Positions 1 through 63,958 of a stretch of 64,000 bases of DNA are shown here, piece by piece. Numbering within the stretch: the stretch's first letter is position 1; each line of letters begins with the position of its first letter. This DNA comes from Pseudomonas phage pPa_SNUABM_DT01, in the sequence record MW735835.1; one strand, 5' to 3'. Position numbers and translations under genes: made by a program. Below the pieces are notes generated by a model, which had not been told where the DNA came from, did no database searches, and worked only from the letters and a program-made list of their open reading frames with translations.

Positions 1-498
1 TTCCGGGTCGTTGCCGAGAGCTGCGGCGATTTCCTGGATGGTGTCCAGGGTGCCCGGAGCAGCGCCAACGAGGTCGTCGATCTTCTTCTGGGCGATCTTG
101 TCGGCCAGGAAGGCAGTGACGTACTTGTCAGCAGCGCCAGCCAGCGCTTCGGCTTCGGTGGCGACGCCGTAGTTCTCGACGTTACCCAGGCCGACGTCGG
201 CTTTGGTCAGAGCGTCGATGACGCCGTTCAGCTCGCCTTTGGCGGCTACGATCGCGGCGGCGATAGCAGCAGCGTAGTCGGCTTCGACGGTGGCCAGGGA
301 CTTGCCGCCCAGGGCCAGGGCGTTGTCGGCGGTGCCGGCAGTGGCGGCCTTACCGGCCAGGATCTCGGTGGTGATCTCGGCAAGAGTCTTGCCGTTCAGC
401 TTCAGAGAGTTCGGAGCGTCTTTGTTCGCCAGAGCGGCGACCAGACGCTGAAGGGCCGCCTTCATTGCGGCTTCGAGTACAGCGTTGGACATTGCCAT
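1..498 (-). CDS. Tail-fibre-like protein, N-terminal 166 aa only; the gene runs off the left edge of the window. N-terminus MAMSNAVLEAAMKAALQRL..KLNGKTLAEITTEILA is paralogous to the gene at 6806..7393. It contains one VGLGNVENYGVATEAEALAG fibre repeat.
   Basis: Hand translation of the reverse strand from the ATG at 496-498. Shares its N-terminal module with 6806..7393 and the repeat motif with the fibres at 58-62 kb. Confidence 0.6.
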   Translation of the reverse strand, partial: MAMSNAVLEAAMKAALQRLVAALANKDAPNSLKLNGKTLAEITTEILAGKAATAGTADNALALGGKSLATVEADYAAAIAAAIVAAKGELNGVIDALTKADVGLGNVENYGVATEAEALAGAADKYVTAFLADKIAQKKIDDLVGAAPGTLDTIQEIAAALGNDPE

Positions 499-2738: not shown

Positions 2739-2817
2739 CTGTTTATCAAATCCTATGGGAGCCTTTAACGAGCATTTCGTTCACGAAGATGTCTTCCTTT
2801 CTCAAGAGGCGATAAAC

Positions 2818-7486: not shown

Positions 7487-7990
7487 TTACTGCTGTTCAG
7501 CTTCCAAGCCGGCGGCAATATCGTCAATGTCATTGGTCACATTGGTCATCACTTGCTGGAATTCGTCACGCAGCAGGTATTCGGAGGCGTTCACCCCACC
7601 CAGCTGCTCAGAGTCTTTAACGGTGCCATCGCGGGCTTCGGTAATGATCTCTTCGCGAGTCTTTCCATCCAACTTCAGTGCGTTGACTGCAATATCTTCA
7701 ACGCCCAACTTTTCCTTGAGCAGGTCTTCGATCTCAGTCCGCGAGAAAGTACCTACTTGGGCAGCAGTTACCTGGTTGGGGTTATCCCGCCTTGCGGCAA
7801 AGATAGCAAGGATAGCATTGATAGTGGTGCGGTAGGTTTTCTTCTCCATACCTGCACCGCCGTCAGCCCGTGTTCTGACGGTAATCTCAATGCTATCCTC
7901 ACCAGAGAGCTGCTCAGGATCGATTGGGGGAAGTTGGAAGATCGTGGCGGTCCAATCATTCGCCGGTACCGGCGGGTTCTCTTCTGCCAT
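7487..7990 (-). CDS. Hypothetical structural protein, 167 aa, with fibre-type motifs (KLDGKTREEI, LGGVNASEYLL).
   Basis: ORF with a clean start; motif similarity to the K(L/F)xGKTxxEI elements in the fibres. Confidence 0.5.
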   Translation of the reverse strand: MAEENPPVPANDWTATIFQLPPIDPEQLSGEDSIEITVRTRADGGAGMEKKTYRTTINAILAIFAARRDNPNQVTAAQVGTFSRTEIEDLLKEKLGVEDIAVNALKLDGKTREEIITEARDGTVKDSEQLGGVNASEYLLRDEFQQVMTNVTNDIDDIAAGLEAEQQ

Positions 7991-48226: not shown

Positions 48227-48644
48227 AGTTGCTCACAAACGAGATGCGCAACTCATCATGAGGTGACCGCTCAACATGATGCAACAGTCGAGCTGAGAAG
48301 ATGACCAAGCGGCCTTCCTTCGGGTGCACACGGTGATGGTTGCCTTGTTGATCGTGGATCACCAATGGTCCTTCGGCATCCAGTAGGTAGAGTACCGAAG
48401 TGAACACATGAGGCAGGTGATCATGAGGGGTGAGGCCTCCCGGACCGATGTGCACGTGGTTCGCACAGATGACCAAGTCCTGGAGTTGCAGATGCTGCTG
48501 CGTCAGGGGCAGGATTGTTTCGTCCGCCCACTTGATCAGGTCTTCATTGATCACGACATCTTTGTCGATCTCGCAGAAAGCCTGATCTACGACCCAGTCG
48601 GGGACAGGTATCCCTTCAACCTGGAAGAACAAAGGCTCGTTCAT
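48207..48644 (-). CDS. Second 2OG-Fe(II)-oxygenase-like paralog, 145 aa from MNEPLFF.
   Basis: GLTPHDHLPHVFTSVLYL .. GRLVIFSARLLHHV; ATGA overlap with the upstream radical-SAM gene. Confidence 0.5.
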   Translation of the reverse strand: MNEPLFFQVEGIPVPDWVVDQAFCEIDKDVVINEDLIKWADETILPLTQQHLQLQDLVICANHVHIGPGGLTPHDHLPHVFTSVLYLLDAEGPLVIHDQQGNHHRVHPKEGRLVIFSARLLHHVERSPHDELRISFVSNYEFPSV

Positions 48645-49666: not shown

Positions 49667-50672
49667 ATTGGAGCCCTACCAGGCAGTCTTTTATTTTCAT
49701 GCGTTCCATGATGTTGATGATGCCCTTCTCACTGCAACTGGACATGTAGACGCAGGACATGCATGGCGTATCTGCCAGATAGTCCAGGGCGCGTTCTAGG
49801 GCCTTCTGACGGGTGTTCAGAAGATTCTCCATAGTCCAGGGGCGGGGAATGACGAAGTCGTCTTCTAGGAAGGGACAATCGTCTTTGAGGAAGGGTACCC
49901 AGTACAGCTTGCTGTCGGTGTACAGCAAGTTCACCATAGTGCCGGTGTGGTAGCAGAGATCGGGGTTACGGCGGCGCTCATCCTCACCCGACAGACCCGA
50001 GTAGAACTGGGTGATGCGGTGAGACATACGCTTGATGTTCTGGGCGACCATCAGGTCCTTCACTGGCACACGCCCGTACGGGATGTTCAGGATGTCGTCC
50101 TTGTCCACCGGGAAGTCGACCTTGAAACCGTTCTTCATCATCTCGTCGAAGTCTTCGCCCACGGTGTCCGTGGTGCAGTTGACCACAAAGCCTGCTTCGT
50201 TGAGGTAGGCCTTTTTCAAGTGCTCCTTCACGAAGTCCAGCTTGGAGACGATCATCTTGCTGAACTTGTCCGACTTGAAGAACGATGGCGCAGCTGGCAT
50301 CAGGAACCGCACAGCCTTGCCGGGTATGGCCTCGTCGATCTCTTCGCACATGACCTTGTACAGGTCCATGTTCTTCTCAAGGAACGCCGCGTTGAAGGTG
50401 ACCTGATGAAACCCCTGAGCCATCTCACGGAACACCGGATGTTCCATGACCTCAGCCACGTTGTCCGCAGACATGTAGTCGGTCGGGCCGATCCCCATGT
50501 CGAACGCCACGTAGCCATTGGCCACCATTTCGTTGACCAAGGCAGCCAGTTTAGGAATGTCATCGACATCCCCTCCCAACTCACGGTCAATCATGCAGCC
50601 GGCGCAATGGTTCGCGCAACCCCGGAAGATGTCCAGGGTGATTTCCAGCCGTTGACGATGTTGTACGATCAT
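49623..50672 (-). CDS. Radical SAM enzyme 2, 349 aa; paralog of enzyme 1.
   Basis: ITLDIFRGCANHCAGCMID; C-terminal CMSCVYMSSCSEKG; overlaps enzyme 1 by 44 nt. Confidence 0.75.
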   Translation of the reverse strand: MIVQHRQRLEITLDIFRGCANHCAGCMIDRELGGDVDDIPKLAALVNEMVANGYVAFDMGIGPTDYMSADNVAEVMEHPVFREMAQGFHQVTFNAAFLEKNMDLYKVMCEEIDEAIPGKAVRFLMPAAPSFFKSDKFSKMIVSKLDFVKEHLKKAYLNEAGFVVNCTTDTVGEDFDEMMKNGFKVDFPVDKDDILNIPYGRVPVKDLMVAQNIKRMSHRITQFYSGLSGEDERRRNPDLCYHTGTMVNLLYTDSKLYWVPFLKDDCPFLEDDFVIPRPWTMENLLNTRQKALERALDYLADTPCMSCVYMSSCSEKGIINIMERMKIKDCLVGLQYVSTGSEQSVQPDA

Positions 50673-51601
50673 TTCTTACGTCCAGCCCAATTGTCCAATA
50701 GACCCCGGAAGCCGTTACAGGAATTCTTCAGGGAGGTGACTTCACGCAAGTGTTCGGAAAGGCAGTTGCCAAAGTACGGGCAGGAGGAGCAGAAGGGATT
50801 GTCTTGGACCCGGTCGCGTTCAAAACCACACCAGTCCAGATACCCTTGTACTCCATCGACCGTCAGGAAATACTCACGGTCGTCCTTGTCGAACTCCAGT
50901 ACTGCAAAATCCCCAGAGGGCGTGATGTAGATGTGGTCGTCGCTGAATGCATTGCGCTTACCTTCTACCGCCTCTTTTACTTGGGTCTCGTTCTCGAAGT
51001 AGAACTTGCGTGCAGGATGCTTGATCACTGCCCATACAAACTCTTCGAATTCCTTGAACGACACCTCGTGCTCGTTAGCCTGGTTGGTGCTGTACGGCTT
51101 GATCTCACACCCCATGAGGTGCGGGAACATGTTCATCGTCTCGACGTAATCGTCAGGCGTTGTCTTATCGAGGAACGCACGACTGGCCAGCGTCAGCACG
51201 TTGAAGCGCTGACTCAGCAGGAACATGTTGTTCAACACCAGCTCATGTTTCTCACGGGCTTCGAAGTCGTACGACACCGAGATCATGAACGCCTTGTCAT
51301 GGACGATGTCTGGCACGTGAGACAGGTTGGTCACCAGCACGATGTCAGTGATCCCACGGGTCAACAGAACCTGCTTGACGCCAATGAGGTACTCTTGAGG
51401 CAGCACCAGCACCTCACCACCGTAGATGTCGACATGACCAATTTCGAAGTGCTCCATCAGAGCATCGAGCCGATCAGCAAAGACATCCACAGGCAACAGA
51501 GTGCGGTCGCTTAACTGTTGCTCGGTGAGGTAACAAAACGAGCACCGGAAGTTGCAGTAGTACCAGGGGTTGAAGCTGATGTTGAGGCTGGGTTTGGCCA
51601 T
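50669..51601 (-). CDS. Radical SAM / SPASM-domain enzyme 3 (anSME / peptide-maturase-like), 310 aa.
   Basis: NPWYYCNFRCSFCYL; C-terminal CGFERDRVQDNPFCSSCPYFGNCLSEH Cys cluster. Confidence 0.8.
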   Translation of the reverse strand: MAKPSLNISFNPWYYCNFRCSFCYLTEQQLSDRTLLPVDVFADRLDALMEHFEIGHVDIYGGEVLVLPQEYLIGVKQVLLTRGITDIVLVTNLSHVPDIVHDKAFMISVSYDFEAREKHELVLNNMFLLSQRFNVLTLASRAFLDKTTPDDYVETMNMFPHLMGCEIKPYSTNQANEHEVSFKEFEEFVWAVIKHPARKFYFENETQVKEAVEGKRNAFSDDHIYITPSGDFAVLEFDKDDREYFLTVDGVQGYLDWCGFERDRVQDNPFCSSCPYFGNCLSEHLREVTSLKNSCNGFRGLLDNWAGRKK

Positions 51602-51780
51602 GATTGCAACGATTCCAGGAAGCGGCGTTGGTAGGGATGCAGGGGCTTGGTGTGACCGAGCGCCATCTCGGCAAAATCAGCGAGGTTGTCTCGGCAACGC
51701 TTGACGACTACTTTCTTGAGGACTTCGGGGATCTCAAGCTTGAGTTCGTATCCCGGAGGGAAGAATGCCATTTGATCCAT
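51511..51780 (-). CDS. Small ORF, 89 aa, between radical-SAM genes; its 3-prime 91 nt overlap the enzyme-3 start.
   Basis: ORF only; begins 3 nt after the enzyme-4 stop. Could be a precursor or accessory peptide, or spurious. Confidence 0.3.
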   Translation of the reverse strand: MDQMAFFPPGYELKLEIPEVLKKVVVKRCRDNLADFAEMALGHTKPLHPYQRRFLESLQSWPNPASTSASTPGTTATSGARFVTSPSNS

Positions 51781-51782
51781 GA

Positions 51783-52874
51783 TTAACCTTTCGCGATGAG
51801 TTGGACGGATTCGTCCTCGTAAGGGGTCGGTGTCAGATGGGCCGACATGCCATTGATCTCGATGATCTTGGCTGCCTGACTCTTCATCTTCCGACAGTGG
51901 TGTTCGGTCAAGCCAAACCGCTTGGTGTCCGAGATGGTCTTACGGCAACCATTGCAGATGGCAAACATCGGGCAGATGTAGCAGGATTCCTTCATCGACT
52001 GAAGGTGTTCCTGATCCCGTAACGGCAGGACCAGTTCCTTGCCAGACATCTCGGTCTCGAAGTCAATCGGGAACGCCATGTCGTCAGCAAAGGCACCGCA
52101 GGAGAAGTAATGACCACCGGGCTGCAAGGTACGGATACCTTCATCGCAGTTGCGAGCCAGAGGACACGTGGTGTGCTTGCCTTTAAGGCGCTTGGCCATC
52201 TGTTTGGTGTTGTACTCCCACTCCATCAGACCGGCTTCGTAGATCTGGATGTAGTGGCCGTAGATATCGGCTTGGGTGAAGAAGTTGTTCTCACTACCCA
52301 TCACCGTGCCGCGGTTGTTCACTTCAGGCCCAGAGGCCACGACATGGTTCACCTTGGCCTCGACACCCATCTCCTTGGCCAGCCTGACCGTATCCAAGAC
52401 AGTGTGCTCGTTGTCCTTGTCGATCACCGCAATGAAGTCCAAGCGGTAGCCGATGCGTTCAAAGAACAGGTCCGAGACCTTACGGAAATCCTCTTCAGTG
52501 AACGGCGTACCATCACCCTTCAGGCGTTTGTCGCCGTATTGGAACGACGTGGTGATGCCCAGACGTTCATGCTTGAACAACTCTTCCCACATCTCGGGCT
52601 TCTTGTAGAAAGCCCAGAGGTTAGAAGTGAAGCTGATGGATGCATCGCAGTTGTTGCGGTCCAGGATGGCGATCATGTCCCAGTAGTACTGGGGCGGCAT
52701 CATCAGAGGATCGCCACCGTTGACGATGATGGTGTTGGTATCGGGGAAGCGCTGAATGAAGCGTTCGATCTGATCCAGCTCAACGATGTCCTTGGGGTCC
52801 TCGGACAGGTAAGTACTGGAGCAGAACGTGCACTTGAAGTTACAGGCTACCGTTGGCTTGACGATGAGATCCAA
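51783..52874 (-). CDS. Radical SAM / SPASM-domain enzyme 4, 363 aa.
   Basis: VKPTVACNFKCTFCSS; C-terminal CPLARNCDEG .. SCGAF .. CYICPMFAICNGC (two auxiliary-cluster-like motifs). Confidence 0.8.
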   Translation of the reverse strand: MDLIVKPTVACNFKCTFCSSTYLSEDPKDIVELDQIERFIQRFPDTNTIIVNGGDPLMMPPQYYWDMIAILDRNNCDASISFTSNLWAFYKKPEMWEELFKHERLGITTSFQYGDKRLKGDGTPFTEEDFRKVSDLFFERIGYRLDFIAVIDKDNEHTVLDTVRLAKEMGVEAKVNHVVASGPEVNNRGTVMGSENNFFTQADIYGHYIQIYEAGLMEWEYNTKQMAKRLKGKHTTCPLARNCDEGIRTLQPGGHYFSCGAFADDMAFPIDFETEMSGKELVLPLRDQEHLQSMKESCYICPMFAICNGCRKTISDTKRFGLTEHHCRKMKSQAAKIIEINGMSAHLTPTPYEDESVQLIAKG

Positions 52875-53028
52875 TTGCCTGCTCCTGAGGTTGAGTGGTC
52901 CAAAGGTTGAAGTAATCGCGCTTGTCGATCTTGTCCGGGTTCTCGATAGTGAGTTGTTTCAGCTTCTCGGCTATTTCTTTTTCGGACATCTTGAGAAAAT
53001 TACGGGGAGGTACGGCCATGGCAGTCAC
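52840..53028 (-). CDS. Small ORF, 62 aa (MTAMAVPPRNFLKMSEKEIAEKLKQLTIENPDKIDKRDYFNLWTTQPQEQ..); overlaps enzyme 4 by 35 nt.
   Basis: ORF only; located between two SPASM maturase-like genes. Confidence 0.3.
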   Translation of the reverse strand: MTAMAVPPRNFLKMSEKEIAEKLKQLTIENPDKIDKRDYFNLWTTQPQEQAIGSHRQANGSL

Positions 53029-53116
53029 CCTCTTTAAAGAAAAGATTCATAAGAAAGGTTCCGCATGTTTTAAGACACACGGCATAAAGGCCCGGTCTAG
53101 CCGGGCCCCTATGTTG

Positions 53117-54118
53117 TCACGCAAGGATCACCTTGAACATGGCCTTGATCGAGCAGTCTTTCGACTTCTCGCCCAGGACCGTGTCATGCAGGAAACACCG
53201 TAGGCCACAGCGCTGATAGAACTCGCAACTGAAGCACCCGTAGTGTTCCACAAATGTCACTTCTGCGTTGTCCTTCGCGATCAGGCCTTCCTTCTCATCG
53301 AGGATTGCATCTTTGCCCGCTTCAGACCAACAGGTACTGATCACCCCATCCTTGTTGATGATCTTGGTGGAACGGCACGTGGTCTCGTTGACGACGTTAC
53401 GTTTCCAGTCCTTGATCGGATAGGAGTTCGGGTACTTGTCGTTCAGCTTGATGTACAGCTGACTGATCAGGTCTTCGTCGGGTTGATGATAGGCGTACAG
53501 CTGACTGGGGATGTAATGATCGAAGTACACGTCGTACTTGTCACAGAGCCAGACGAACTCGTCACCTTCCTTGCCATCGAGGAAGATTTGGATGTTCTGC
53601 TTGGTGATCACCACGTTGACCGTCTGAACGTACTCGCCCAGGACTTCGAGGTTCTGGAAGAACAGTTCACGCTGAGCACCATTGAAGCGCCCAGCAGGGT
53701 CGTAGGACGTGGCTAGCCAAACACGTGGGTCGATCAGCCGGAGCCGTTCGATCAGGTGCTTGACGCGGTCGGTGTTGTGGTAGACGAGATTGGTACCGAA
53801 GACCAACTTGACATCCTTGAAGTGTTCCAAGCACATCTTGCCGACTTGGTAGTACGCCTCGAAGACGTCATCACCAATCTCGTTCATGAACAGTTCACCG
53901 CCGGTGATGTTGACCACCATAGCCGTGTCTGGGTGCGTGGTTGCCAAGAGCTTGGCAGCCTTCTCGATCATCAGATCCCCGTCGAGACCCACTTTGGAAT
54001 CATGGTCCTGGTGGCAGAACGAGCAACGCATGTTGCACAGCTCGAACAGGATCAGGTGGGCTTCTTTCCACTTGCCCTTCTTGTCACGCAGGATGTCTAC
54101 AACAGGGATCAGGTCCAT
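53117..54118 (-). CDS. Radical SAM / SPASM-domain enzyme 5, 333 aa from MDLIPVV.
   Basis: ILFELCNMRCSFCHQD; C-terminal CWSEAG .. CFSCEFYQRCGLRCF. The track start is a TTG 6 nt upstream; the ATG shares one nucleotide with the upstream stop (TAATG). Confidence 0.8.
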   Translation of the reverse strand: MDLIPVVDILRDKKGKWKEAHLILFELCNMRCSFCHQDHDSKVGLDGDLMIEKAAKLLATTHPDTAMVVNITGGELFMNEIGDDVFEAYYQVGKMCLEHFKDVKLVFGTNLVYHNTDRVKHLIERLRLIDPRVWLATSYDPAGRFNGAQRELFFQNLEVLGEYVQTVNVVITKQNIQIFLDGKEGDEFVWLCDKYDVYFDHYIPSQLYAYHQPDEDLISQLYIKLNDKYPNSYPIKDWKRNVVNETTCRSTKIINKDGVISTCWSEAGKDAILDEKEGLIAKDNAEVTFVEHYGCFSCEFYQRCGLRCFLHDTVLGEKSKDCSIKAMFKVILA

Positions 54119-55173
54119 TACCAACGCGCTCCGGTGAGAGCCGCCTTCAGGCCTGCCAGGTCAGTGGTCAGGATGTGGCGGATCAGGTTCTCGTCGTACT
54201 TGCCGGTGTCACGCATCGCCAGGGCAATACGCATCTCGCCAGCAAACATGTCGGTCACACGACGCAGGCAGTTCTCGGGTTCACGCATGTTGGCTTCGTC
54301 GTTCAGCAGCGAGAGGATCTGAGCAGCACGGCGGGACGAGGATTCGTCTTCGAGCTGGTGCATCAGTTCAACGGCCTCCATCAGCATGCCCTTGATCCAG
54401 ACGTCGGTCGGACGGAAGTCGTACAGGCCCGGACGGAGCAACTGTTGAGACGCCAGGTGCGGCAGATTGAGGCAACCTTCGAACACGGTCGGTGCGTTCA
54501 GCAAGGTGTCGACGTCGGCGCCGGCCAGTTCCCAGTTCTCGGGACGGGTCAGGTGACGAGCCCAGACGTCCATGGCATCGTGGGCGTTCGACAGTGCGAT
54601 ACGACGCAGGATGTTCTTGGTGGTCTTCGGGATCTTGCCGACACGGGCATCGGTACGCAGGCGAGCAATGTGCCACTCCAGCGAGAGGGCTTCCGGGTTA
54701 CGGAGTACCAGCTCGTTCATGGCCTCTTGCAGCGGTTCGTCCTTGTCGAACAGCGCCTGCACGACCTTGGTGTCGATCTTGATGCTGGACAGCACATCGA
54801 CGCGAGGTTCGCCCATGGCGACGATCAGGCTGTTGAAGGTGGCCTTCTTGCACACGAAGAACCAACGGAAGTTCTCGAAGTCGATCTTCGGGAACAACGC
54901 CTTGATCAACATGGCGTACAGGCGGGTATAGGTGTCGCTGTCGCAGTACACCATGACCTTGTCCTTGCTCTCGAGCGCTGCACCGAAGACCTCGGTGAAT
55001 TGCTCGGGTTCGAACTGGTCGAGGCTCTGGGCGAAACCCAGCTGCACACCGACTTCTTCGAACTCGCCCGGGCTGTGTTTCCAGCCGATCTGGGGCGAGA
55101 TGGTAATGACGTTCTTCGAGCGGTCAATCCGCAGTTCGGAGTCGACGTACGCCTGGTTAAACAGATGGTACAT
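54118..55173 (-). CDS. Hypothetical protein, 351 aa, within the radical-SAM cluster.
   Basis: Coupled ORF; no recognisable motif. Confidence 0.5.
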   Translation of the reverse strand: MYHLFNQAYVDSELRIDRSKNVITISPQIGWKHSPGEFEEVGVQLGFAQSLDQFEPEQFTEVFGAALESKDKVMVYCDSDTYTRLYAMLIKALFPKIDFENFRWFFVCKKATFNSLIVAMGEPRVDVLSSIKIDTKVVQALFDKDEPLQEAMNELVLRNPEALSLEWHIARLRTDARVGKIPKTTKNILRRIALSNAHDAMDVWARHLTRPENWELAGADVDTLLNAPTVFEGCLNLPHLASQQLLRPGLYDFRPTDVWIKGMLMEAVELMHQLEDESSSRRAAQILSLLNDEANMREPENCLRRVTDMFAGEMRIALAMRDTGKYDENLIRHILTTDLAGLKAALTGARW

Positions 55174-56032
55174 GTTCGATACCTTTCAGGACATTGAGGT
55201 TGGACTGGAGTTCCGCACGTCCAGCTTGCTCGAGTCGAACCAGCTGCTCGGGTTCGCTCAGCGACAGCAGACCCAGGAAGTAGGGGTTGTGCTCGCTATC
55301 GAAGAAGGCGAACAGGTTCTTGCCGGCGAAGCAGTACTCGTTGAAGAACATCTTGTTCCAGCACCAGTCTTCTTCCGGGATGTCTTGCATCAGCACCGGG
55401 AACAACGGGTGTTGGATGAGCTTCACGAAGTTCAGGCCCAGCAGGCTTTCACCTTCGATCTCGGGGTAGTTGGCTACCTGATCCTTCAGCGTGGCGTAGC
55501 TGTGCAGGGCGTAGACCGGGACCATGCAGACGTTCTGCATCCAGGTCTCGAGGATGTCGCGATGCTCCTCGATGAACGGGACGGGATTGAACGGCAGCAG
55601 GTAAGGCTTGCCCGACGCAGCCAAAAGCAAGTTGATGGCCAGGTCTTCCATCTCAGGCAGATTCACCATGGAGGTGATGTAGAGATAGTCCTTCAGCATG
55701 TCCAACTTGGCTTCCAGCGAGGAGAACTTGATCTCGCACTTGATGTCCAGGTTGGTTAGGTAGGTGATCAGCACACTGCCTTTGTACTTGCTGTTGTCGT
55801 AGTCGACGATGAACTTCACGTTCTCCGAGAACTTACGCTTGAGCGTCAGCATCGGGATCGGAACGGTCACTTCGAGCACGACCAACTTGTCCCGCCACTC
55901 CTGCTCTTCTTTCAAGAGCAGTTTGTATTCCAGCTTCATGCCGAGAGACATGCTGTTCAGGCGCTCTCGGTCTTTTCTCGGATTGCCGGTCAACTTGTGC
56001 CGTTTGCGGAACTCGTCGAGTTGCTTCTCCAT
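55157..56032 (-). CDS. Hypothetical protein, 291 aa, within the radical-SAM cluster.
   Basis: ORF overlapping the downstream gene by 17 nt. Confidence 0.5.
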   Translation of the reverse strand: MEKQLDEFRKRHKLTGNPRKDRERLNSMSLGMKLEYKLLLKEEQEWRDKLVVLEVTVPIPMLTLKRKFSENVKFIVDYDNSKYKGSVLITYLTNLDIKCEIKFSSLEAKLDMLKDYLYITSMVNLPEMEDLAINLLLAASGKPYLLPFNPVPFIEEHRDILETWMQNVCMVPVYALHSYATLKDQVANYPEIEGESLLGLNFVKLIQHPLFPVLMQDIPEEDWCWNKMFFNEYCFAGKNLFAFFDSEHNPYFLGLLSLSEPEQLVRLEQAGRAELQSNLNVLKGIEHVPSV

Positions 56033-56044
56033 GGTGAACTCCTA

Positions 56045-56581
56045 TTACCGGCGGCCGCGAGCAGAGTGACAGCTCGTGTGGCAGCTGGTGTGACAGATGG
56101 TATTTTGCAGGGTGAGGACCTGTGCACGGCAGGCATTCTGATAAGCGCTCAGGAGAGCGTTACATGCGTTGTTATAGACGTTGAGGTCCATGTTGGTGCC
56201 TTCGGTCAGAGCGCCGAGGTTAGCACCAGAGGCGAAATCCACTCCATAGACCGTATGACCAACAGCGGTCACATCGAAGATCAGTTCCTGACCAACAGCG
56301 TAATGGGTACGCCAGATCAGGACACGGCACGTCCGAATACCACTGAATAGGTTGGCCACGTAACGAAGAACCTGGGTGGCTTGCAGTGCTTGCGGCTCAC
56401 CGGCGGTGAATTGCTCGGTAGCGAACAGTGCGCCTTTGCCACCGGTAGTGCCAGCGAACCAGCCTGGCAGGCCATTCGGCGGTACGTTGTTGGTACCCCA
56501 GGCGATACCGGCGTTCATGTTGTTGCTGAGAATCGTGTTGGCGTTGGCAGCCAGTCGACTCCGACGAATCACTTCGGTCAT
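56045..56581 (-). CDS. Protein of 178 aa with a Gly/Ala/Thr/Asn-rich body and a C-terminal tandem Cys motif ..NTICHTSCHTSCHSARGRR; candidate radical-SAM substrate.
   Basis: Starts 1 nt after the stop of radical-SAM enzyme 6; three tandem CHTS/CHS units at the extreme C-terminus. Confidence 0.55.
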   Translation of the reverse strand: MTEVIRRSRLAANANTILSNNMNAGIAWGTNNVPPNGLPGWFAGTTGGKGALFATEQFTAGEPQALQATQVLRYVANLFSGIRTCRVLIWRTHYAVGQELIFDVTAVGHTVYGVDFASGANLGALTEGTNMDLNVYNNACNALLSAYQNACRAQVLTLQNTICHTSCHTSCHSARGRR

Positions 56582-56582
56582 A

Positions 56583-57623
56583 TCACACCTTCAGAATCAG
56601 ATTGGTCTGTTGCGTTCGACCGGAGAGGTAACGCAGGGTGTTCTTGAGACCCCCACAGCGACCCTTCTGCCAAGGCAGTCGGTGACAGTCGCCCCCACAC
56701 AGATCAAACACGTCGCACGTAATGCACGTATCGCCCCAAGTCAGTTCTTTGGCTTGTTGCTCCACCCGGCCATCCGAAATAAGGAAAGCGTCGACACCAT
56801 CCTCCAAGCGTGCATGGTGCAGCTTAGCGGCAGCGTTAGGGCAACCAGACAAAGAACCGTCCGAGTTGATGGTCACCAGGTTCTGCTCGCAGTTGCGGCA
56901 GTTGGTGTCCACCTTGACGACGTTCTTCTTGAGCTTTTCCTCGAGGATGTCGAGGGTCTTGATGCGCACACGTGGCTTGCGTTCTTTGTAGCGCAGGTAC
57001 AGCGCAAGGTACCAGTTGTCCTGGTCCTCATTGTTAGGGAAGATCTCGGGGTTATCGACAGCACTGCCATCGTTGGTCAACCGTTCCAAGGACGCTTCAT
57101 CCACTGCAAAGCTGTCCAACTGGTCCATCAGCCAATCGGGCGACATGGCGATGAGTTGCTTGCTGACCGACACCTTGACATTGATGCCCACGCCGTGGGA
57201 CTTCAGGGTCTCGAGGTTCTTCTTCCATAGCTGGAACTGCTTGTCGTTGCTCCAGCGAATCCAGTGGTCCCAGCTGGTCCCAATGAATGCACCGAAGTAA
57301 TCCTTGATGAAGGCGATGTGCTCATCCGTCAACTTGAAGGTCAGGTTGCTGGCGGCACACATCGACACGTTCGGCAGATCCACGAAGTGATCAGCGAAAC
57401 GCTTGAGCTTTTCCAACGGGACCAGGAACGGTTCCCCACCATGGAACTCCATGTGGTAGTGCGTGCTCTTGGGGTACTTGGACATGAAGTCCTTCACCCA
57501 ATCGCTGACCTGGTCCGGATCGAACGGGGTCTTATCCCCGGCCTTGCCGTTGGTGAAACAATGCTGACAGTTCAGATTGCAAGTGCCCGTGGTCTTGACA
57601 TAGATGGTTTTGTAGGCGTTCAC
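56583..57623 (-). CDS. Radical SAM / SPASM-domain enzyme 6, 346 aa.
   Basis: VKTTGTCNLNCQHCFTNG; C-terminal CRNCEQN .. GCPN .. CITCDVFDLCGGDCH. Confidence 0.8.
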   Translation of the reverse strand: MNAYKTIYVKTTGTCNLNCQHCFTNGKAGDKTPFDPDQVSDWVKDFMSKYPKSTHYHMEFHGGEPFLVPLEKLKRFADHFVDLPNVSMCAASNLTFKLTDEHIAFIKDYFGAFIGTSWDHWIRWSNDKQFQLWKKNLETLKSHGVGINVKVSVSKQLIAMSPDWLMDQLDSFAVDEASLERLTNDGSAVDNPEIFPNNEDQDNWYLALYLRYKERKPRVRIKTLDILEEKLKKNVVKVDTNCRNCEQNLVTINSDGSLSGCPNAAAKLHHARLEDGVDAFLISDGRVEQQAKELTWGDTCITCDVFDLCGGDCHRLPWQKGRCGGLKNTLRYLSGRTQQTNLILKV

Positions 57624-58177
57624 AGCTTCGCTTCCAAAAAGAGTTCCAAGCCGAAACTAATCATCAGGGAACTGTCGACATTGATGGCCTGGTGAAGTTC
57701 ACCACGCGGAATATGGATGCTGTCCCCGGCAGTGAGTTCGATCTCGCCATCAGGGAACTTGAAAACTTTACGGCCTTCGACCATGTAGATGACGACGTCA
57801 TCTAGGTCTGTGTGCATCGGGAAGCTGACGCCCCCTTTCGGCGAAATGAAAAGATGAGCGCTCACTGGCCCCACGTGTCCGAAATGCGCAGCAAGCCGCG
57901 CACAGTTCTGGAACATGGTGGCATTGAGGCGCTCGATCCCTTCGATCTTGACCGGGCAATCGCTGTTCTCCAGGAAGTCAGACTGACTGTAGAGGTCGAA
58001 CGATTGCGCGTTCTTGATGTATTTCACCAGGCACTGCTCGTACAGATGCGGGCTTGACAGCAGAAGGTCCACATCGAGAAGCTCAGGAGTGATCCCCTCG
58101 AATTGAAAACCAAGACGTTCGAACATGTTCAAGCCCTCTCTGAAGTTGGTGTCTATAGGATTGCCTAGAAGGATCAA
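57620..58177 (-). CDS. Cupin / JmjC-like Fe(II)-oxygenase-fold protein, 185 aa.
   Basis: SFPMHTDLDDVVIYMVEGRKVF .. GDSIHIPRGELHQA (HxD .. H triad in a cupin-like spacing); ATGA-coupled on both sides. Confidence 0.55.
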   Translation of the reverse strand: MILLGNPIDTNFREGLNMFERLGFQFEGITPELLDVDLLLSSPHLYEQCLVKYIKNAQSFDLYSQSDFLENSDCPVKIEGIERLNATMFQNCARLAAHFGHVGPVSAHLFISPKGGVSFPMHTDLDDVVIYMVEGRKVFKFPDGEIELTAGDSIHIPRGELHQAINVDSSLMISFGLELFLEAKL

Positions 58178-59748
58178 TCCTGCCAGAGCGGCGGCCAGAC
58201 CTGCTGCCAGACACTGTTCACGGAGGCGTACAGACGGCCACCGGCGTTCAGCAGGGCAATGGTCGGATCGCTACCCAGGTTCGGGTCATTAGCCCCCGGA
58301 GCAGCGAAGCCGGTCCAGGTAGCCGGCCACAGTTGGCGCCAGGCACCAGAGATGTAACCTTGCAGGGTGCTACCCACTACACGAAGCGAGGTGTTCTGCG
58401 AGACGTTGATCTTCACATAACGCGAATCGTGGTCACCCGACTGCACGTGATCGTACATCCCGCCTGCGGTGAGCAGGTAGGCATCGGAGTTCAGCGTACG
58501 GGAACGAGTGATGGCGTTCGGCAGGTTGCCGAGGCCCACTTGTGCCTTGGTCGTTTGGTGCGGGTTGTTGAGGTTGGACACGTGGGAGTTGATCAGGTTA
58601 CCGGCGATTGCGTCGATGGCCTGCTTGGTCCGCAGAGGTGTCATGAACCGGTCATTGAGAACACCGGCTACCGCTTCGGCTTGGGTGGCGGTCTGGAAGT
58701 TGTCTACCAGGCCCAGGCCCACCTGTGCTTTCGTGGTGTTGTGCGGGTTGTTCTTATCGTTGACGTGGTTCTGGATGAGGGTACCGGCGTGGACCATGAT
58801 GGCCTGGTAAGTGCGCTGCGGCGTCATGAACGCGTTAGCAGCAGTACCGGCTTCGGCTTGAGCCTGGGTCGCTGTCGGGAAGTTGTCCACGCTACCGAGC
58901 CCGACTTGGGCCTTGGTGGTATTGTGGGGGTTGTTCTTGTCCGCGATGTGCGTGTCGACGGCTTCATTGGCCAGACGAGCAGCAAGCACTGCCACCAGAC
59001 TCGGGGTCATGTACTTGTTGTTCACGACACCGGCCAGCGCTTCTGCGTTGGTGGCGATACCGTAGTTCTCGACCGAACCCAACCCTACCTGCGCCTTGGT
59101 GGTGCGGTGTGGGTTGTTGAAGTCGTTCAGGTGCGCATCGACTTTGTCATCCAGAGCATCGATGTTCGCCTGGAGCTGGTCACGGATGAATTGCATCTGT
59201 TGACGCAGTTCGTCGTGAGACGCCTCATCACCCACCAGGATGGCATTGGTGATGCGTTCCAGCTGCCATACGACGTATTCCCAGCCATAGCTGTCGCCGA
59301 TGTCGTGGATGTGCGGAGCCGGCGGGTAAGCCGTCGGACGACCGATGATCGAACCCCACTTGATGGGGCGTTCATCGAGGTCCAGCTCAGCGATGAGGTC
59401 AGCCAGGGCACCCAGGTTCCAGGAGTACTCGCCACCGACGACTTGGTAGTCCATGCGGACTGCAACCGGGGCTTGTACCTTCAGAACGACGGCACACTGC
59501 ACGTCCTTGCCGCTGCGCAGAGAAGCTTGAGCGAATGGTTGAGCGAGCACGTAGTCGTCGACCGGAATCAACGGCTCACCGGTGTCGTCGTTGACCAGGA
59601 CCATGCTCTCAGTGTAGAACGGGCCAGCCTTGGGAACGAAGACCCGCTCGTTGTTGGCGGAGATCTCTCGGCGTTCCCCGACGATCTTGTTCGTCGGCGA
59701 GGTACCCTTGAGATCAAGAGGGTACTGAATGATCGGTGGTACTGGCAT
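58174..59748 (-). CDS. Tail fibre protein B, 524 aa, with about 3.5 tandem ~60-aa repeats (NNPHxTTKAQVGLGSVxNF..ATxAxAxAG..FMTP).
   Basis: Repeats at residues about 211-415. N-terminal domain YPLDLKGTSPTNKIVGE..FVPKAGPFYTESM is paralogous to the fibre A N-terminus. Confidence 0.7.
   Translation of the reverse strand: MPVPPIIQYPLDLKGTSPTNKIVGERREISANNERVFVPKAGPFYTESMVLVNDDTGEPLIPVDDYVLAQPFAQASLRSGKDVQCAVVLKVQAPVAVRMDYQVVGGEYSWNLGALADLIAELDLDERPIKWGSIIGRPTAYPPAPHIHDIGDSYGWEYVVWQLERITNAILVGDEASHDELRQQMQFIRDQLQANIDALDDKVDAHLNDFNNPHRTTKAQVGLGSVENYGIATNAEALAGVVNNKYMTPSLVAVLAARLANEAVDTHIADKNNPHNTTKAQVGLGSVDNFPTATQAQAEAGTAANAFMTPQRTYQAIMVHAGTLIQNHVNDKNNPHNTTKAQVGLGLVDNFQTATQAEAVAGVLNDRFMTPLRTKQAIDAIAGNLINSHVSNLNNPHQTTKAQVGLGNLPNAITRSRTLNSDAYLLTAGGMYDHVQSGDHDSRYVKINVSQNTSLRVVGSTLQGYISGAWRQLWPATWTGFAAPGANDPNLGSDPTIALLNAGGRLYASVNSVWQQVWPPLWQD
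58503..59118 (-). repeat. Coding tandem repeats (about 180-nt units) inside tail fibre B.
   Basis: Near-identical NNPHNTTKAQVGLG blocks; they also generate the spurious plus-strand ORFs at 58508..58810 and 58883..59065. Confidence 0.6.
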
Positions 59749-59816
59749 GGATTACTCCATTTCCTAAAAGGGGATCGAATAATGACACGCTCCGCCGAAA
59801 CGGAGCGTGTTCATGG

Positions 59817-62210
59817 TCAGGCGAACAGGTTGGTCATCGCGTTATCGATAACCGAGATCAGCCCATCGCAGAGCAGACCAATGTCGTTGTCCACCTTGGC
59901 CGCGGTCGATTTCGGAGTCATGTACAGGTTGGTCGCAGTGCCAGTTACAGCTTGAGCGTCAGTCGCCGTACCGTAGTTGTTGACGCTGCCGAGGCCCACC
60001 TGAGCCTTCGTCACTTGCATCGGGTTGTCCCGACGGGCAATGAAGGTTTGCAGGGCTTCGATATCTGCCGAACCGTCAGCGATGACTTCCGGGTACACGA
60101 TGCCAGCAGGTTCTACACGGATCAGATCCGCGACATCTTCCCACACGGGGTATTCAGCCCCAACGAACCGCTTGAAGGACAGTTCGGTGATGGTCAGACG
60201 GTTACGCGAACCGGTGGACTTCAGCCACACTTCCATGATCGCATCGGTACCGGTGCCCACAGCCAGCACACCGATCTCGATGGGCTTGTCGGCAGGCGAC
60301 AGATGCTTGACCGAGGCACCCTTGAGCACCATCAGGAACGGACCAGCGCCATCGATGTTGTCGTACACCGCACCGATCTCTACCAGCACCGTGTGGTGTT
60401 TGAAATCACCGAGGCTATCGTCGTCACGACCACCGCTGATCAACAGGGTCAGGTCAGCAGTCAGGTCTTCAGCAGTGTTGCTGAAATGACCCAGCTTGAC
60501 CCAGTTCGTTGGCGCCTGGACTTCGTTGCCCACGTCATCGAACAGCTGCGGCATCGGCGGTACATCCCACTGGATGGAACTGCCTTCCACGGCCGTGGCC
60601 ATGTCTGCCTTAACCTGAGCGTAGGTCTTGCCGTCGAACTTGCTGGTGTCGGCCGCTTTACCGGTCAGGATGTCGGTTTTGGCTTCGAGGTAGGTCTTAC
60701 CTTCGAACTTCAGCGCGTTACCCGCAGTCTGGGTGGCCAGCCAAGCGATCATCTCTGCCTGACTCATGCCGTAGACACGGTTGGAGTTGGCAGCGGTGTC
60801 GTTCAGCCCGATCTTGTCCTCGAGGAGGGTATCGATCTCTTGCTCGGTGTACGTGCCGACCTGTGCAGCGGTCACCCGGTGTGGGTTGGTGTAGTCGGTC
60901 ACGTGAGCATTGGAGCTGTCACCCACAAGTTCGTTGATCGCATAACGCACCTGGAGCGGGGTCATGTAACGATCGTTGGCAGTGGCTGCCCGAGACTCGG
61001 CTTCCGTAGCGATGCCGTAGTTCTGAACGAGGCCCAGACCTACTTGTGCTTTGGTAGTGCCGTGTGGGTTGTTGAAGTTGTTGACGTGATCGCTCACGCC
61101 CGAACCAACGGTCTGGCTCAGCACCAGCGCCAGCAGACGCGGGGTGATGATGCCGGAGTCATCCACGCCCGACAGGGCCGCAGAGTCACTGGCAACGGGG
61201 ATGTTCGGGACGTTACCCAGACCTACCTGAGCCTTGGTCGTTTGGTGCGGGTTGTTCTTATCGGCAACGTGAGCATCGAAGGCATTGCCAATGATGGCGA
61301 CGATGGCCTCACGGACACGAACCGGGGTCATGTAACGGGCAGCGGATGCACCGGCCTCGGCTTCTGCCTGAGTGGCGATCGCGTAGTTCTGCACGTTACC
61401 CAGGCCGACCTGAGTCTTGGTGACCTGGTGAGGATTGTTCATGTCGGCCATGTGCAGGTTGAGGTTTGCCTGCGCGGTCGCATCGATCAGCTGCTTGACG
61501 CGCAGCGGCGTCATGAAGCGATTGTTCGCTGTACCGGTGGTCGCTTCACCAACGGTAGCCGTCGGGAAGTTATCGACCAGACCCAGACCCACTTGGGCCT
61601 TGGTCACATCGTGCGGGTTACTCTTGTCCGCCAAGTGGTCAGCCAGGCCGCCAGCGTTCTTCATCAGAATCGCTTGTTCGATGTCACCCAGTTCGTCGAC
61701 CACTTCCGACATGCCGACGAAATCGTCGATATTGAAGTCGTGGTTGACCACCGGGAACTGATGCGGCAATTCGACGACCTGTTCCCAGGTGCCGATACGC
61801 GGGTTGAAGGCGACGTTGAGCAGCAGCTCGCTGTACTTCTGATCATCGAGCACCCACTCGCCGCCGATGTTCTGGTATTCCATCCGCAGCTGACCGGCCA
61901 AGTTGCGGTCATAGAACGTGATGGCACCGTAGACGGGCAGTCCAATGGTATGCGATGCGTGAGCGAAGTGGTAACCGAAGTTATAGTGCACGCCCTCTTC
62001 GAGGGCCTGACCTAGTGCCGGATTGTTGGTGTTGGCTCCAGCCGGATAGAGGCGGAGTTTAACGCTTTCGGCATAAAACGGGCCACTGCGCGGAATGATG
62101 TAATAATGGTCGAACATCCCACGAGATTGGATCTGTTGGGTTTCGACCACCTTATTCGTCGCCGCAGTCCCCGTCGGATCGAAAGGGTATTGTGGAAGGA
62201 CAGTACTCAT
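59817..62210 (-). CDS. Tail fibre protein A, 797 aa, with at least five tandem NNPHxxTKAQVGLGxVxNY..ATxAEAxAG..YMTP repeats plus one more near the C-terminus.
   Basis: Repeats at residues about 197-455 and about 720-760. Also has K(F)EGKTYLEAKTDIL / KFDGKTYAQVKADM elements like the other fibre-type proteins. Confidence 0.7.
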   Translation of the reverse strand: MSTVLPQYPFDPTGTAATNKVVETQQIQSRGMFDHYYIIPRSGPFYAESVKLRLYPAGANTNNPALGQALEEGVHYNFGYHFAHASHTIGLPVYGAITFYDRNLAGQLRMEYQNIGGEWVLDDQKYSELLLNVAFNPRIGTWEQVVELPHQFPVVNHDFNIDDFVGMSEVVDELGDIEQAILMKNAGGLADHLADKSNPHDVTKAQVGLGLVDNFPTATVGEATTGTANNRFMTPLRVKQLIDATAQANLNLHMADMNNPHQVTKTQVGLGNVQNYAIATQAEAEAGASAARYMTPVRVREAIVAIIGNAFDAHVADKNNPHQTTKAQVGLGNVPNIPVASDSAALSGVDDSGIITPRLLALVLSQTVGSGVSDHVNNFNNPHGTTKAQVGLGLVQNYGIATEAESRAATANDRYMTPLQVRYAINELVGDSSNAHVTDYTNPHRVTAAQVGTYTEQEIDTLLEDKIGLNDTAANSNRVYGMSQAEMIAWLATQTAGNALKFEGKTYLEAKTDILTGKAADTSKFDGKTYAQVKADMATAVEGSSIQWDVPPMPQLFDDVGNEVQAPTNWVKLGHFSNTAEDLTADLTLLISGGRDDDSLGDFKHHTVLVEIGAVYDNIDGAGPFLMVLKGASVKHLSPADKPIEIGVLAVGTGTDAIMEVWLKSTGSRNRLTITELSFKRFVGAEYPVWEDVADLIRVEPAGIVYPEVIADGSADIEALQTFIARRDNPMQVTKAQVGLGSVNNYGTATDAQAVTGTATNLYMTPKSTAAKVDNDIGLLCDGLISVIDNAMTNLFA
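60845..61622 (-). repeat. Coding tandem repeats inside tail fibre A.
   Basis: Five consecutive about 60-aa units beginning (N/S/T)NPH. Confidence 0.6.
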
Positions 62211-62352: not shown

Positions 62353-63654
62353 ATGTACGAATACCAAGGCGCTTTGGTCAAGCACCGTAAGCCTGACGTC
62401 CGCTTTGAAGAAAAGGACGTGAAGGATATCGCGGTCAAGACCCTCCTGCGTGATTATGCCGAGGTCTACCTCACCCTGACTCATCCGAGTCTGGAAGGGA
62501 AACACACCCTCGTGTTGACCGAAGTGGCAGACCGGACAGGCAGCCTTCTCGAAACCACCACCGTAGCGCAGTGGTTGGTCGATAACGGCAATCTGACCCT
62601 GCCCACGCACGAAGGAATCCCATTCACCAAGACCAGTGTCGTCATGGCGCGTGATGCCTGGATGGCAGGGTATCGGGTGGATCGCTGCATCCCCAATGGT
62701 TCTCCGTTCAACGACGCCATTGACTCGGACAAGACCGACATCTGGCTGACTCGCGACGACACCGACTACGTGGATGTCCAACGCCACTGCTTGGGCACAG
62801 TCAACGGCCTGTTCCACCGGGTGGATGCAGACAACGATGGCGTCTACCTGAAAGACGGCGGTATCACGTTCCGTAAAACCCAGAACGCGCTGGTCGGTCT
62901 GGTGAGTTTCAAGAACATCGGTCGAGTGCACACTGCCAGCATCACGCCGGACATGGTGTACAACCCCGACATCACCAAGCGTTACTCGGACAACTTCTAC
63001 CTGAAGGTCCCGTTCGACACCAGCAACAAGGTAATGGGCATCGTGATCGGTGGTTACCTGCATCTGCACACCAACGACATCCAAGTCATCGGCGGCAATG
63101 CGATGAAGGTACGCATGAACAAGATCCCGTTCCTGGATCGTTACATGGTTTCGCGCTACCTGATCGACCAGTCGTCTATGGAACGCTTCCACGAGGTGTC
63201 GGCCACCAACGAATTGGACTATGACCTGCAAGGGTTCCTGTCCAATGAATGCATGTTGGAACTGTTGACCCTGAGTCAGTCGTTCATCGTTGGTATCGAA
63301 GTGGATCATCTGACCACCAAGGTGTTCCAGACCTCGCGCACTCATCTGCCGGGTCGGTTCTACCATGACCAACGTCCCCTGCTGCCGCTGCGTACCCAAC
63401 TGGGCCTGATGCCCTCGTACATCAGTGAAGAAGAGAACGGTGTCTGGGTTATCCGGGTGGACAACAACCTGCAACAACACCGCTTCATGAACACCCGTGA
63501 TTACAGCCTCCAACCCAAGGTCGATGAGAAACGCATCTCCTCGGAACCGGAGACGCTGGCCCGCGGCGAACTCGTACAGTGGGCAACCCACACGGTCGAG
63601 ATCAAGGTTCCTGAAGTGCAAGTCCCGGCAGACATCCTGCCAATCGTGCCCTAA
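62353..63654 (+). CDS. Hypothetical virion / baseplate-like protein, 433 aa.
   Basis: Long ORF followed by a CATAGAG-family terminator. Confidence 0.5.
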   Translation: MYEYQGALVKHRKPDVRFEEKDVKDIAVKTLLRDYAEVYLTLTHPSLEGKHTLVLTEVADRTGSLLETTTVAQWLVDNGNLTLPTHEGIPFTKTSVVMARDAWMAGYRVDRCIPNGSPFNDAIDSDKTDIWLTRDDTDYVDVQRHCLGTVNGLFHRVDADNDGVYLKDGGITFRKTQNALVGLVSFKNIGRVHTASITPDMVYNPDITKRYSDNFYLKVPFDTSNKVMGIVIGGYLHLHTNDIQVIGGNAMKVRMNKIPFLDRYMVSRYLIDQSSMERFHEVSATNELDYDLQGFLSNECMLELLTLSQSFIVGIEVDHLTTKVFQTSRTHLPGRFYHDQRPLLPLRTQLGLMPSYISEEENGVWVIRVDNNLQQHRFMNTRDYSLQPKVDEKRISSEPETLARGELVQWATHTVEIKVPEVQVPADILPIVP

Positions 63655-63694: not shown

Positions 63695-63958
63695 TTACGG
63701 GATGTCCATATCACTGGAGCCTGTGGCTCCGTGGCCGCACGAGGCGACGCTTCCGACCCGAGTCACGGGAATGCCATTGATCGTCATCCAAGGACTTGCT
63801 GTGGAGATTACAGGGGCGTTGTGAGGGGGTTGTCCGTGGCCACTGACGCCATCACCCAGCAACGAGATGGGTTTACCGTTCCAGGTCCAATTGGGAGCGC
63901 CTGGTCCAGTGATCACAGCGCCAGCAGAGTCGGCTCCGACTAACGATACGATGCCCAT
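63695..63958 (-). CDS. PAAR-repeat protein (spike-tip sharpener), 87 aa.
   Basis: GDGVSGHGQPPH .. INGIPVTRVGSVASCGHGATGSS pattern (G-H-G .. INGxP..RVGD/S .. CGHG). Confidence 0.6.
   Translation of the reverse strand: MGIVSLVGADSAGAVITGPGAPNWTWNGKPISLLGDGVSGHGQPPHNAPVISTASPWMTINGIPVTRVGSVASCGHGATGSSDMDIP

Follow-up and report, generated by a model that had tools for sequence, protein, structure and literature searches.

Pseudomonas phage pPa_SNUABM_DT01 (MW735835.1) encodes two neighbouring putative fibre proteins, here called fibre A and fibre B, whose closest described counterparts are the peripheral baseplate fibres of the jumbo phage phiKZ. A cryo-electron microscopy (cryo-EM) atlas of phiKZ describes 12 such fibres, each with a base made of three copies of gp131 together with gp133, gp134 and gp135 and docked under gp130 (PMC13250141). 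This six-chain base was fitted at 4.4-6 Å from predicted models and comprises six N-terminal domains (N-domains) and a six-helix bundle (PMC13250141). The proteins gp131 to gp135 have been described as a paralogous baseplate/fibre family (Sycheva et al., 2012, as cited in PMC12676376 and PMC5694885), and their genes tolerate no transposon insertions (PMC12676376). Similar proteins are found in other phages. For instance, gp168-170 of SPN3US resemble gp131 and are lost in a tailless mutant (PMC5694885), and gp25 and gp29 of Goslar have been detected in purified virions by mass spectrometry (10.64898/2026.04.21.720040). We analysed fibre A and fibre B within a stretch of 64,000 nucleotides (nt) of the phage record (the window, with position 1 as its first letter). 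Both proteins carry tandem copies of a 61-residue module, and the A-type protein has exactly one full tandem module more than the B-type protein in this phage and in every relative that could be scored.

Fibre A is very probably the A-type and fibre B the B-type peripheral baseplate fibre protein of a jumbo phage that is phiKZ-like (Chimalliviridae-type), and both are members of a family that is already known. Fibre A is 35% identical to phiKZ gp131 over 332 amino acids (aa) (BLASTP, E=5e-50); the match joins residues 9-347 of gp131, which hold its N-terminal domain and modules, to residues 8-463 of fibre A and to a displaced C-terminal module. Fibre B is 35% identical to phiKZ gp135 over 280 aa (BLASTP, E=2e-39) and also matches gp133 (E=1.7e-26) and gp134 (E=5e-26). 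The divergently transcribed gene next to fibre A encodes a homologue of phiKZ gp130 (28% identity over 402 aa, E=1.3e-40; PHROG 3337, E=1.2e-86). The gene order corresponds to gp130(-)/gp131-135(+) of phiKZ, and all related contigs that were examined keep it apart from L012, a fragment of 5.5 kb. Among the PHROG families, fibre A matches 2163, labelled 'virion structural protein' (E=2.5e-139), as well as 13857, labelled 'tail protein' (E=3e-116); fibre B matches 2163 (E=1.4e-139), and predicted viral structures agree with a virion or tail label for the family. By sequence and predicted fold, the proteins listed as 'YomR-like' or under PHROG 2163 and 13857 in PhiEaH1, Goslar (gp25/gp29), RP12, RTH11 and SPN3US (gp168-170) form one family, for which these names are annotation labels only.

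The N-terminal parts of the two proteins separate the A-type from the B-type. Searched alone with phmmer, that of fibre A finds the A-type protein of RTH11 (1.2e-48), RSF1 ORF066 (3.1e-35), phiKZ gp131 (7.4e-31) and Goslar gp29 (8.4e-24), and that of fibre B finds the B-type protein of RTH11 (1.3e-57), Goslar gp25 (2.8e-37) and phiKZ gp135 (5.2e-26); classified by N-domain, Goslar gp25 is B-type and gp29 A-type. A first-pass annotation of this DNA had called A and B paralogous fibres with a common N-terminal domain. Both open reading frames (ORFs) lie exactly where it placed them, the two proteins match each other over their length (BLASTP, E=3e-78) and through their N-terminal 190-205 residues alone (phmmer, 1.4e-14), and the orthologues of both are found in the virion as baseplate or fibre proteins. 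To the extent that homology can tell, the two ORFs therefore encode virion components. Both had been anonymous; with the neighbouring gene they are now assigned to the gp130/gp131/gp133-135 fibre module of phiKZ.

The window as a whole belongs to a phiKZ-like jumbo phage: the major head protein falls in PHROG 3231 (E=7.6e-161), other phage functions are encoded as well, and the guanine-plus-cytosine content is 56%. A megablast search of 50,697 phage records, with the locus and with 25 kb of the window as queries, returned no close cultured relative. The relatives that are close to this phage are metagenomic only, and close homologues are present on many metagenomic contigs of 220-310 kb. With phiKZ the locus shares the gp131-like N-terminal domain, the divergent gp130 homologue alongside, the presence of A-type and B-type paralogues and the NPH..VGLG modules (two copies and one in phiKZ). 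It differs from phiKZ in having one B-type gene in the window instead of three and 4/3 modules instead of 2/1. The tips differ as well: phiKZ gp131 ends in a seven-bladed propeller, whereas fibre A ends in a beta-sandwich and an extra module.

Module counts in the A-type and B-type genes

Syntenic genes were sorted into A-type and B-type by their N-domains, and full tandem modules were counted with one hidden Markov model (HMM), built from the eight full units of the window. The A/B counts are 2/1 in phiKZ (gp131 against each of gp133, gp134 and gp135), 4/3 in the window and in contigs L003, L005 and L015, 5/4 in L014, 6/5 in L011, L017, Xanthomonas phage RTH11 and Goslar (gp29/gp25), 8/7 in L013 and L018, and 11/10 in L016. 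The number in A is that in B plus one in 13 of the 13 scorable genomes, over six distinct states that range from 2/1 to 11/10. A random pairing of the six states would fit this rule with a probability of 1/720, although the genomes are related and the figure is indicative only. The n+1/n relation was not found in the literature searched.

Changes in module number arise by duplication of blocks within each of the two genes. In L011, a close relative of the clade of the window, A has duplicated its own units 3-4 (copies 73% and 86% identical in aa) and B its own units 1-2 (copies 75% and 91% identical), whereas the identity between units of A and units of B is at most 62%. Because the identity to a gene's own units is 73-91% and that across the two genes no higher than 62%, the duplications in L011 are separate two-unit events in A and in B. 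Gene conversion between A and B was considered as a cause of the co-variation and rejected on the same ground, since the new units in L011 come from each gene's own units. A further block duplication is seen in two fibre B orthologues of 646 aa (P0001 and P0002), in which exactly two units (122 aa) are duplicated with copies that are 90-92% identical.

The first-pass annotation had read the near-identical repeat DNA as a recombination or expansion hot-spot for changing fibre length. On such a reading, slippage or unequal crossing-over would change fibre length fast and freely. That fibre length changes is borne out: relatives have between 0 and 11 modules, the number of NPH motifs per protein is 2-10 across 120 homologues of fibre B, and P0001 and P0002 have expanded by two units. 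Rapid or free change is not seen. The lengths of 797 and 524 aa for A and B are kept in L003-L006 at 73-83% identity (796 and 481 aa in L015), and relatives of fibre B form many clusters of 524-aa proteins at 65-92% identity. The DNA is not near-identical either, since the units of the window are old and diverged, with 49-67% identity in DNA and 34-67% in protein between full units. A 69-nt core reaches 61-78% DNA identity between units, and the longest exact common run is 26 nt. Tandem Repeats Finder, suggested earlier as a check, reports no 183-nt array, and together with a direct-repeat search it leaves a diverged 183-nt periodicity and no near-identical nucleotide array. Even the 'recent' duplicates of L011 are 67-83% identical in DNA. 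Finally, every change in module number that was seen has its match in the partner gene, which implies a constraint on module number. The hot-spot is refuted in the form in which it was stated, and rapid, free change of fibre length by near-identical repeats is very unlikely.

The locked n+1/n counts suggest length-matched partner fibres. It is quite possible, and we propose tentatively, that a single composite fibre of six chains has A and B as obligate partners, with the 61-residue module as their common ruler. Each of the two proteins has a gp131-like N-terminal beta domain and a helix, then a shaft of 61-residue modules and then a distal domain of its own. If the phiKZ structure and the models predicted here are a guide, the chains would trimerise, and the N-domains of A and B would dock together under the gp130 homologue to form a six-chain base with a six-helix bundle. 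Past the conserved end of the N-terminal region, A reaches its first module within 6 residues and B has a 31-residue helical spacer. This spacer would take the place of the first module of A, and the two shafts would end at a similar distance from the baseplate. A helix of 31 residues measures ~4.6 nm (1.5 Å per residue), and the module has a 21-residue helix of ~3.2 nm plus an alpha/beta knob; the shafts may end level because the length of the spacer is of the order expected for one module. Module number would then serve as a shared ruler for fibre length, and the distal domains would contact the host. If the proposal is true, fibre length changes only when both genes gain matching block duplications.

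Alternatively, A and B could be independent homotrimeric fibres at different baseplate sites, and the n+1/n relation could follow from a common span or from ancestry only. In favour of this, the distal domains show no relation between A and B, and the phiKZ atlas, whose base was fitted with predicted models, could not build the shafts. The same fitting nevertheless puts A-type and B-type N-domains in one six-chain base. Ancestry alone explains neither two separate two-unit duplications in one lineage nor the exact offset from 2/1 to 11/10, and we consider independent fibres rather unlikely.

Several points weigh against the reading of A and B as paired baseplate fibres. The fibre shafts are missing from the maps of both phiKZ (PMC13250141) and Goslar (10.64898/2026.04.21.720040). 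Trimerisation of the module and lateral pairing of A with B are therefore inferred, and the models are monomers. The 13 genomes are phylogenetically related and represent six count states, with at least one double change within a clade. RSF1 has only a stub of the module in A and none in B, and the n+1/n relation is not scorable there. Fibre A is without the propeller of phiKZ gp131, and phiKZ has three B-type paralogues where the window has one, so the stoichiometry may differ. The placement in the virion is known from homologues.

The fixed 61-residue composite module and the locked counts go beyond the literature searched. Together they give a concrete, testable model for the chimallivirus fibre shafts that are missing from cryo-EM maps, as well as a simple rule for annotating fibre pairs and for estimating fibre length in uncultured jumbo phages. 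Engineering of fibre length would need both genes to be edited together.

Period, conservation and fold of the module

The first-pass annotation had described four to seven tandem repeats of about 60 aa. The period is exactly 61 aa (183 nt), and the number of full tandem units is smaller than was thought, at three to four. The NPH motif starts at residues 198, 259, 320, 381 and 442 of fibre A, with an isolated copy at 729, and at residues 212, 273, 334 and 395 of fibre B. The HMM places its domains at residues 192, 253, 314 and 375 (E ~1e-28 to 1e-32) and 436 of A and at residues 206, 267, 328 and 389 of B. It thereby resolves A into four full units in tandem, then a stub of 17 aa and, displaced towards the C terminus, a further unit (A6); B has three full units and a stub of 24 aa. 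In the 120 homologues of fibre B, 428 of 468 spacings from one NPH to the next are exactly 61 residues. This period is not described in the literature searched.

The core of the module is conserved less strictly within the window than the invariant NNPHxTT reported earlier: three units have S, T or D in place of the first Asn, VT often stands for TT, and A6 has Met instead of the His. Invariant among the eight full units of the window are N7, P8, T12, K13, Q15, V16, G17, L18, G19, V21, N23, A27, T43 and P44. In the family as a whole (264 distinct units from 104 homologues), H1, N7, P8, H9, L18 and V21 are conserved in 100% of units, T43 in 98%, P44 in 97% and G35 in 91%. An exhaustive search of 1.84 billion representatives found module-bearing proteins in 1,399 clusters (50% identity), and one protein contained as many as 27 matched stretches. 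The module is covered by none of the curated families of Pfam and NCBIfam. In Pfam, fibre A has no match at E<=0.1 and fibre B matches only DUF3618 (E=0.071); in NCBIfam, CIS13 scores 24.9 bits, below its cut-off of 370.

In its second half, each unit consists of the alpha/beta fibrous repeat of T4 gp12 and gp34 (ATxAEAxAGTxxxxYMTP). The unit profile matches T4 gp34 (9x3r, E=3.2e-10; 5nxh, E=2.8e-5) and gp12 (5iv5, 5lye and 9f4b, the last being gp12 of Klebsiella phage KP1), in both cases over unit positions 24-56 only. These proteins are reached by the unit profile alone, and phmmer with the whole of fibre A finds no match among the PDB sequences. Fibre B was modelled with AlphaFold2 as a monomer from 85 sequences, with a mean predicted local distance difference test (pLDDT) score of 76. 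The modelled unit runs from a loop (NPH..VGLG.V.N) through a strand, a short helix (ATxAEA) and a second strand (YMTP) to a helix of 21 residues. All of the top five Foldseek matches of this model in the PDB are to gp12 or gp34 (E=3e-4 to 8e-3); their TM-scores are low, which is to be expected when chains are extended.

The 'alpha-helix-containing' fibrous repeat of gp34 and gp12 has a conserved Gly turn and a helix that starts at (S/T)-P (PMC5537660). The module shares with it the motif A-T-x-x-E-x-x-x-G-T-x(5)-(I/V/M)-T-P and, in the prediction, the order of strand, short helix, strand and then a helix from (S/T)P. The two differ in size and regularity. The T4 repeat is 33-47 aa long, with an axial helix of 4 residues and variable loops (PMC5537660), whereas the module here has a fixed 61 aa, a helix of ~21 residues and an added H-x5-NPH..TKAQVGLG.V.N segment. 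For these first 24 residues of the unit, neither a solved chain nor a Pfam or NCBIfam family offers a counterpart. The module is therefore a T4-type repeat joined to a ~21-residue helix and to a turn without solved counterpart, H-x5-NPH-xxTKAQVGLGxVxN.

The module is also dispersed, as the first-pass annotation had noted for the truncated gene at 1-498 (minus strand). The copy in this gene matches HMM positions 11-59 (E=2.4e-14) and is without the H..NPH head, and a second gene of the window, at 7487-7990, carries the module as well. The latter gene has a stub form of it, DNPNQVTAAQVGTFS / DNPNQVTAAQVGTFSRTEIEDLL, and matches the linker region of fibre A; its product may be a short fibre or adaptor. 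The gene at 1-498 ends in GAAPGTLDTIQEIAAALGNDPE, a motif which we take to be common in other phage tail fibres.

Domains and histidines of the two fibres

The coordinates of the two fibre genes, their parts and their neighbours are collected in Table 1. In the model of fibre B, pLDDT is ~90 over residues 11-100 and 80-92 over the long helix. The C-terminal domain of B has six predicted strands between residues 455 and 518 (pLDDT 50-77) and is conserved in the B-type proteins of L016, L017 and L018 and in RSF1 ORF067.

In fibre A, the linker region is modelled as low-confidence helices. Residues 501-530 (60621-60710, minus strand) hold 23-aa repeats, KFEGKTYLEAKTD... and KFDGKTYAQVKAD..., which make up a second fibre repeat, shorter than the module; the genes at 1-498 and 7487-7990 hold related G-K-T/S motifs. 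The beta-sandwich domain that follows weakly resembles, by Foldseek (E 1e-3 to 1e-2), T4 gp9 (1qex) and anchor domains of tail fibres and tailspikes, namely the tail fibre gp42 of Klebsiella phage Kp9 (7xy1) and the N-terminal parts of Acinetobacter tailspikes. A gp131-like seven-bladed propeller was looked for in A and rejected, as the C-terminal model is a beta-sandwich and the similarity to gp131 stops at its residue 347. The propeller is a feature of gp131 itself and not of the whole gp131-135 family.

Table 1. Features of the fibre locus and related genes in the window
Feature	Coordinates	Strand	Extent and description	Basis
Fibre A coding sequence	59817..62210	-	797 aa, A-type	ORF; phiKZ gp131 orthologue by BLASTP; PHROG 2163, PHROG 13857
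A N-terminal part	61641..62210	-	aa 1-190; gp131-like putative docking domain and neck helix	phmmer
A tandem array	60855..61637	-	four full modules, aa 192-435; stub, aa 436-452 (TNPHRVTAAQVGTYT)	HMM, 183-nt spacing
A linker region	60576..60854	-	aa 453-545; two 23-aa KF(E/D)GKTY repeats	direct repeat of 21 nt, 69 nt apart
A beta-sandwich domain	60072..60575	-	aa 546-713 (~170 aa), predicted	AlphaFold2, pLDDT 82-89
A displaced C-terminal module (A6)	59865..60044	-	aa 723-782; DNPM (His to Met)	HMM, E=7e-30
Fibre B coding sequence	58174..59748	-	524 aa, B-type	ORF; phiKZ gp133-135 orthologue by BLASTP; PHROG 2163
B N-terminal part	59134..59748	-	beta domain, aa 20-103; long predicted helix, aa 156-207	AlphaFold2, phmmer
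B His-x-His	59305..59313	-	aa 146-148; PPAPHIH	invariant in 85-sequence alignment
B tandem array	58513..59133	-	three full modules, aa 206-388; stub, aa 389-412	HMM, 183-nt spacing
B C-terminal domain	58177..58512	-	aa 413-524; small beta domain, predicted; two W..WP..W motifs	AlphaFold2
gp130 homologue	62353..63654	+	433 aa; divergent from the fibre genes	BLASTP, PHROG 3337, gene order
Cupin/JmjC-like gene	57620-58177	-
Radical-SAM/SPASM gene	56583-57623	-	peptide-maturase type
178-aa protein gene	56045-56581	-	product ends in CHTSCHTSCHSARGRR
Fibre-like gene, 5' part	1..498	-	cut by the window edge; one module copy	translation, HMM
Small fibre-like ORF	7487..7990	-	~167 aa; module stub and NALKLDGKT repeat	HMM positions 2-17, translation

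Metal sites formed by His-x-His (HxH) are reportedly present at the tips of the T4 gp12 and gp37 fibres. The first-pass annotation had likened the His of the repeat to such sites in other fibres. Fibre A and fibre B resemble these in having invariant His residues in a presumed trimeric fibre, and fibre B has a true HxH ahead of its shaft. They differ in that the module has H-x7-H and in that no HxH is repeated along the fibre. Each module has two invariant His, H1 and H9, with a spacing of eight residues; H1 is at the end of the module helix, on its hydrophobic face. In a presumed trimer, H1 and H9 could form an axial metal clamp of six His once per module. The HxH of fibre B (H146 and H148, PHIH) is invariant in 85 of 85 aligned sequences, sits just ahead of the long helix of the B-type fibres and has counterparts in phiKZ, as PHGH in gp135 and HMH in gp134. 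It is a better candidate for a metal site like those of gp12 and gp37 than the His of the module.

The enzyme cluster downstream of fibre B and other neighbours

A large enzyme cluster follows directly after fibre B (47236-58177, minus strand). It begins with the cupin/JmjC-like gene, the radical-SAM/SPASM gene and the gene for the 178-aa protein and continues with two unknowns, three radical-SAM proteins and further genes, namely one unknown, a weak radical-SAM-like protein and two 2-oxoglutarate-Fe(II) oxygenases. The cupin ORF as listed has a TTG start and overlaps the stop of fibre B. Its homologues are ~170 aa long, and the true start is probably the ATG at 58126 (MFERLG...). The enzyme cluster is also present in L003, L005, L011 and L014-L018, in RSF1 (L007) and in Agrobacterium phage Atu_ph07 (L008). 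The pair of cupin and radical-SAM proteins is found in 14 phage records from two unrelated groups of jumbo phages, and fibre B matches 594 records.

The earlier suggestion that the His, Asn and Thr of the repeats are targets of these adjacent enzymes would make the module a substrate of the cupin/JmjC and radical-SAM proteins. Gene order gives it some ground: fibre B, the cupin, the radical-SAM protein and the next gene adjoin directly on one strand, the order is kept in eight relatives (L003, L005, L011, L014, L015, L016, L017 and L018), and in RSF1 a gene for a GIY-YIG nuclease lies between the fibre genes and the cupin. Fibres and enzymes do not keep company throughout, however. The core of the module is equally conserved in phiKZ, Goslar and RTH11, none of which is among the 14 records that hold cupin or radical-SAM homologues. 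Conversely, Atu_ph07 has the enzyme cluster and no such repeat within 9 kb. L013 (8/7 modules) keeps the fibre pair, and there a gene for a 566-aa GP38-like adhesin (PF05268; 9180-10880) replaces the cupin/radical-SAM cluster after fibre B. Moreover, the first radical-SAM protein is of the SPASM peptide-maturase type, for which the neighbouring protein bears a more typical substrate signature than the fibres do. Modification of the module by these enzymes is most improbable.

The neighbouring protein, encoded after the radical-SAM gene, has the C terminus (CH[ST]S)(CHxS)(CHxx)R[GS]RR in the window, L003, L005, L014, L016, L017, RSF1 (ORF071; L007 10069-10629) and Atu_ph07 (gp170; L008 10044-10934), and its remainder is barely alignable. 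In L018 the (CHxS)3 C terminus is degenerate. Judged by its motifs, the (CHxS)3-RGRR protein looks like a maturase substrate of the His-Xaa-Ser type or of the kind that gives rise to ribosomally synthesized and post-translationally modified peptides, and it seems a more plausible substrate of the enzymes than the fibres. The enzyme cluster may still have a role in fibre biogenesis, since its position after fibre B is kept in many relatives.

Two further observations concern the surroundings of the fibre genes. At the other end of the window, 641-2707 and 2755-4845 (both plus strand) are neighbouring paralogues of ~690 aa each with similar N termini, and the product of the first matches PHROG families annotated as baseplate wedge subunit or virion structural protein. 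Beyond the gp130 homologue, an 87-aa ORF at 63695-63958 (minus strand) occupies the place where L005, L011, L013 and L017 have a gene with a PAAR motif (PF05488).

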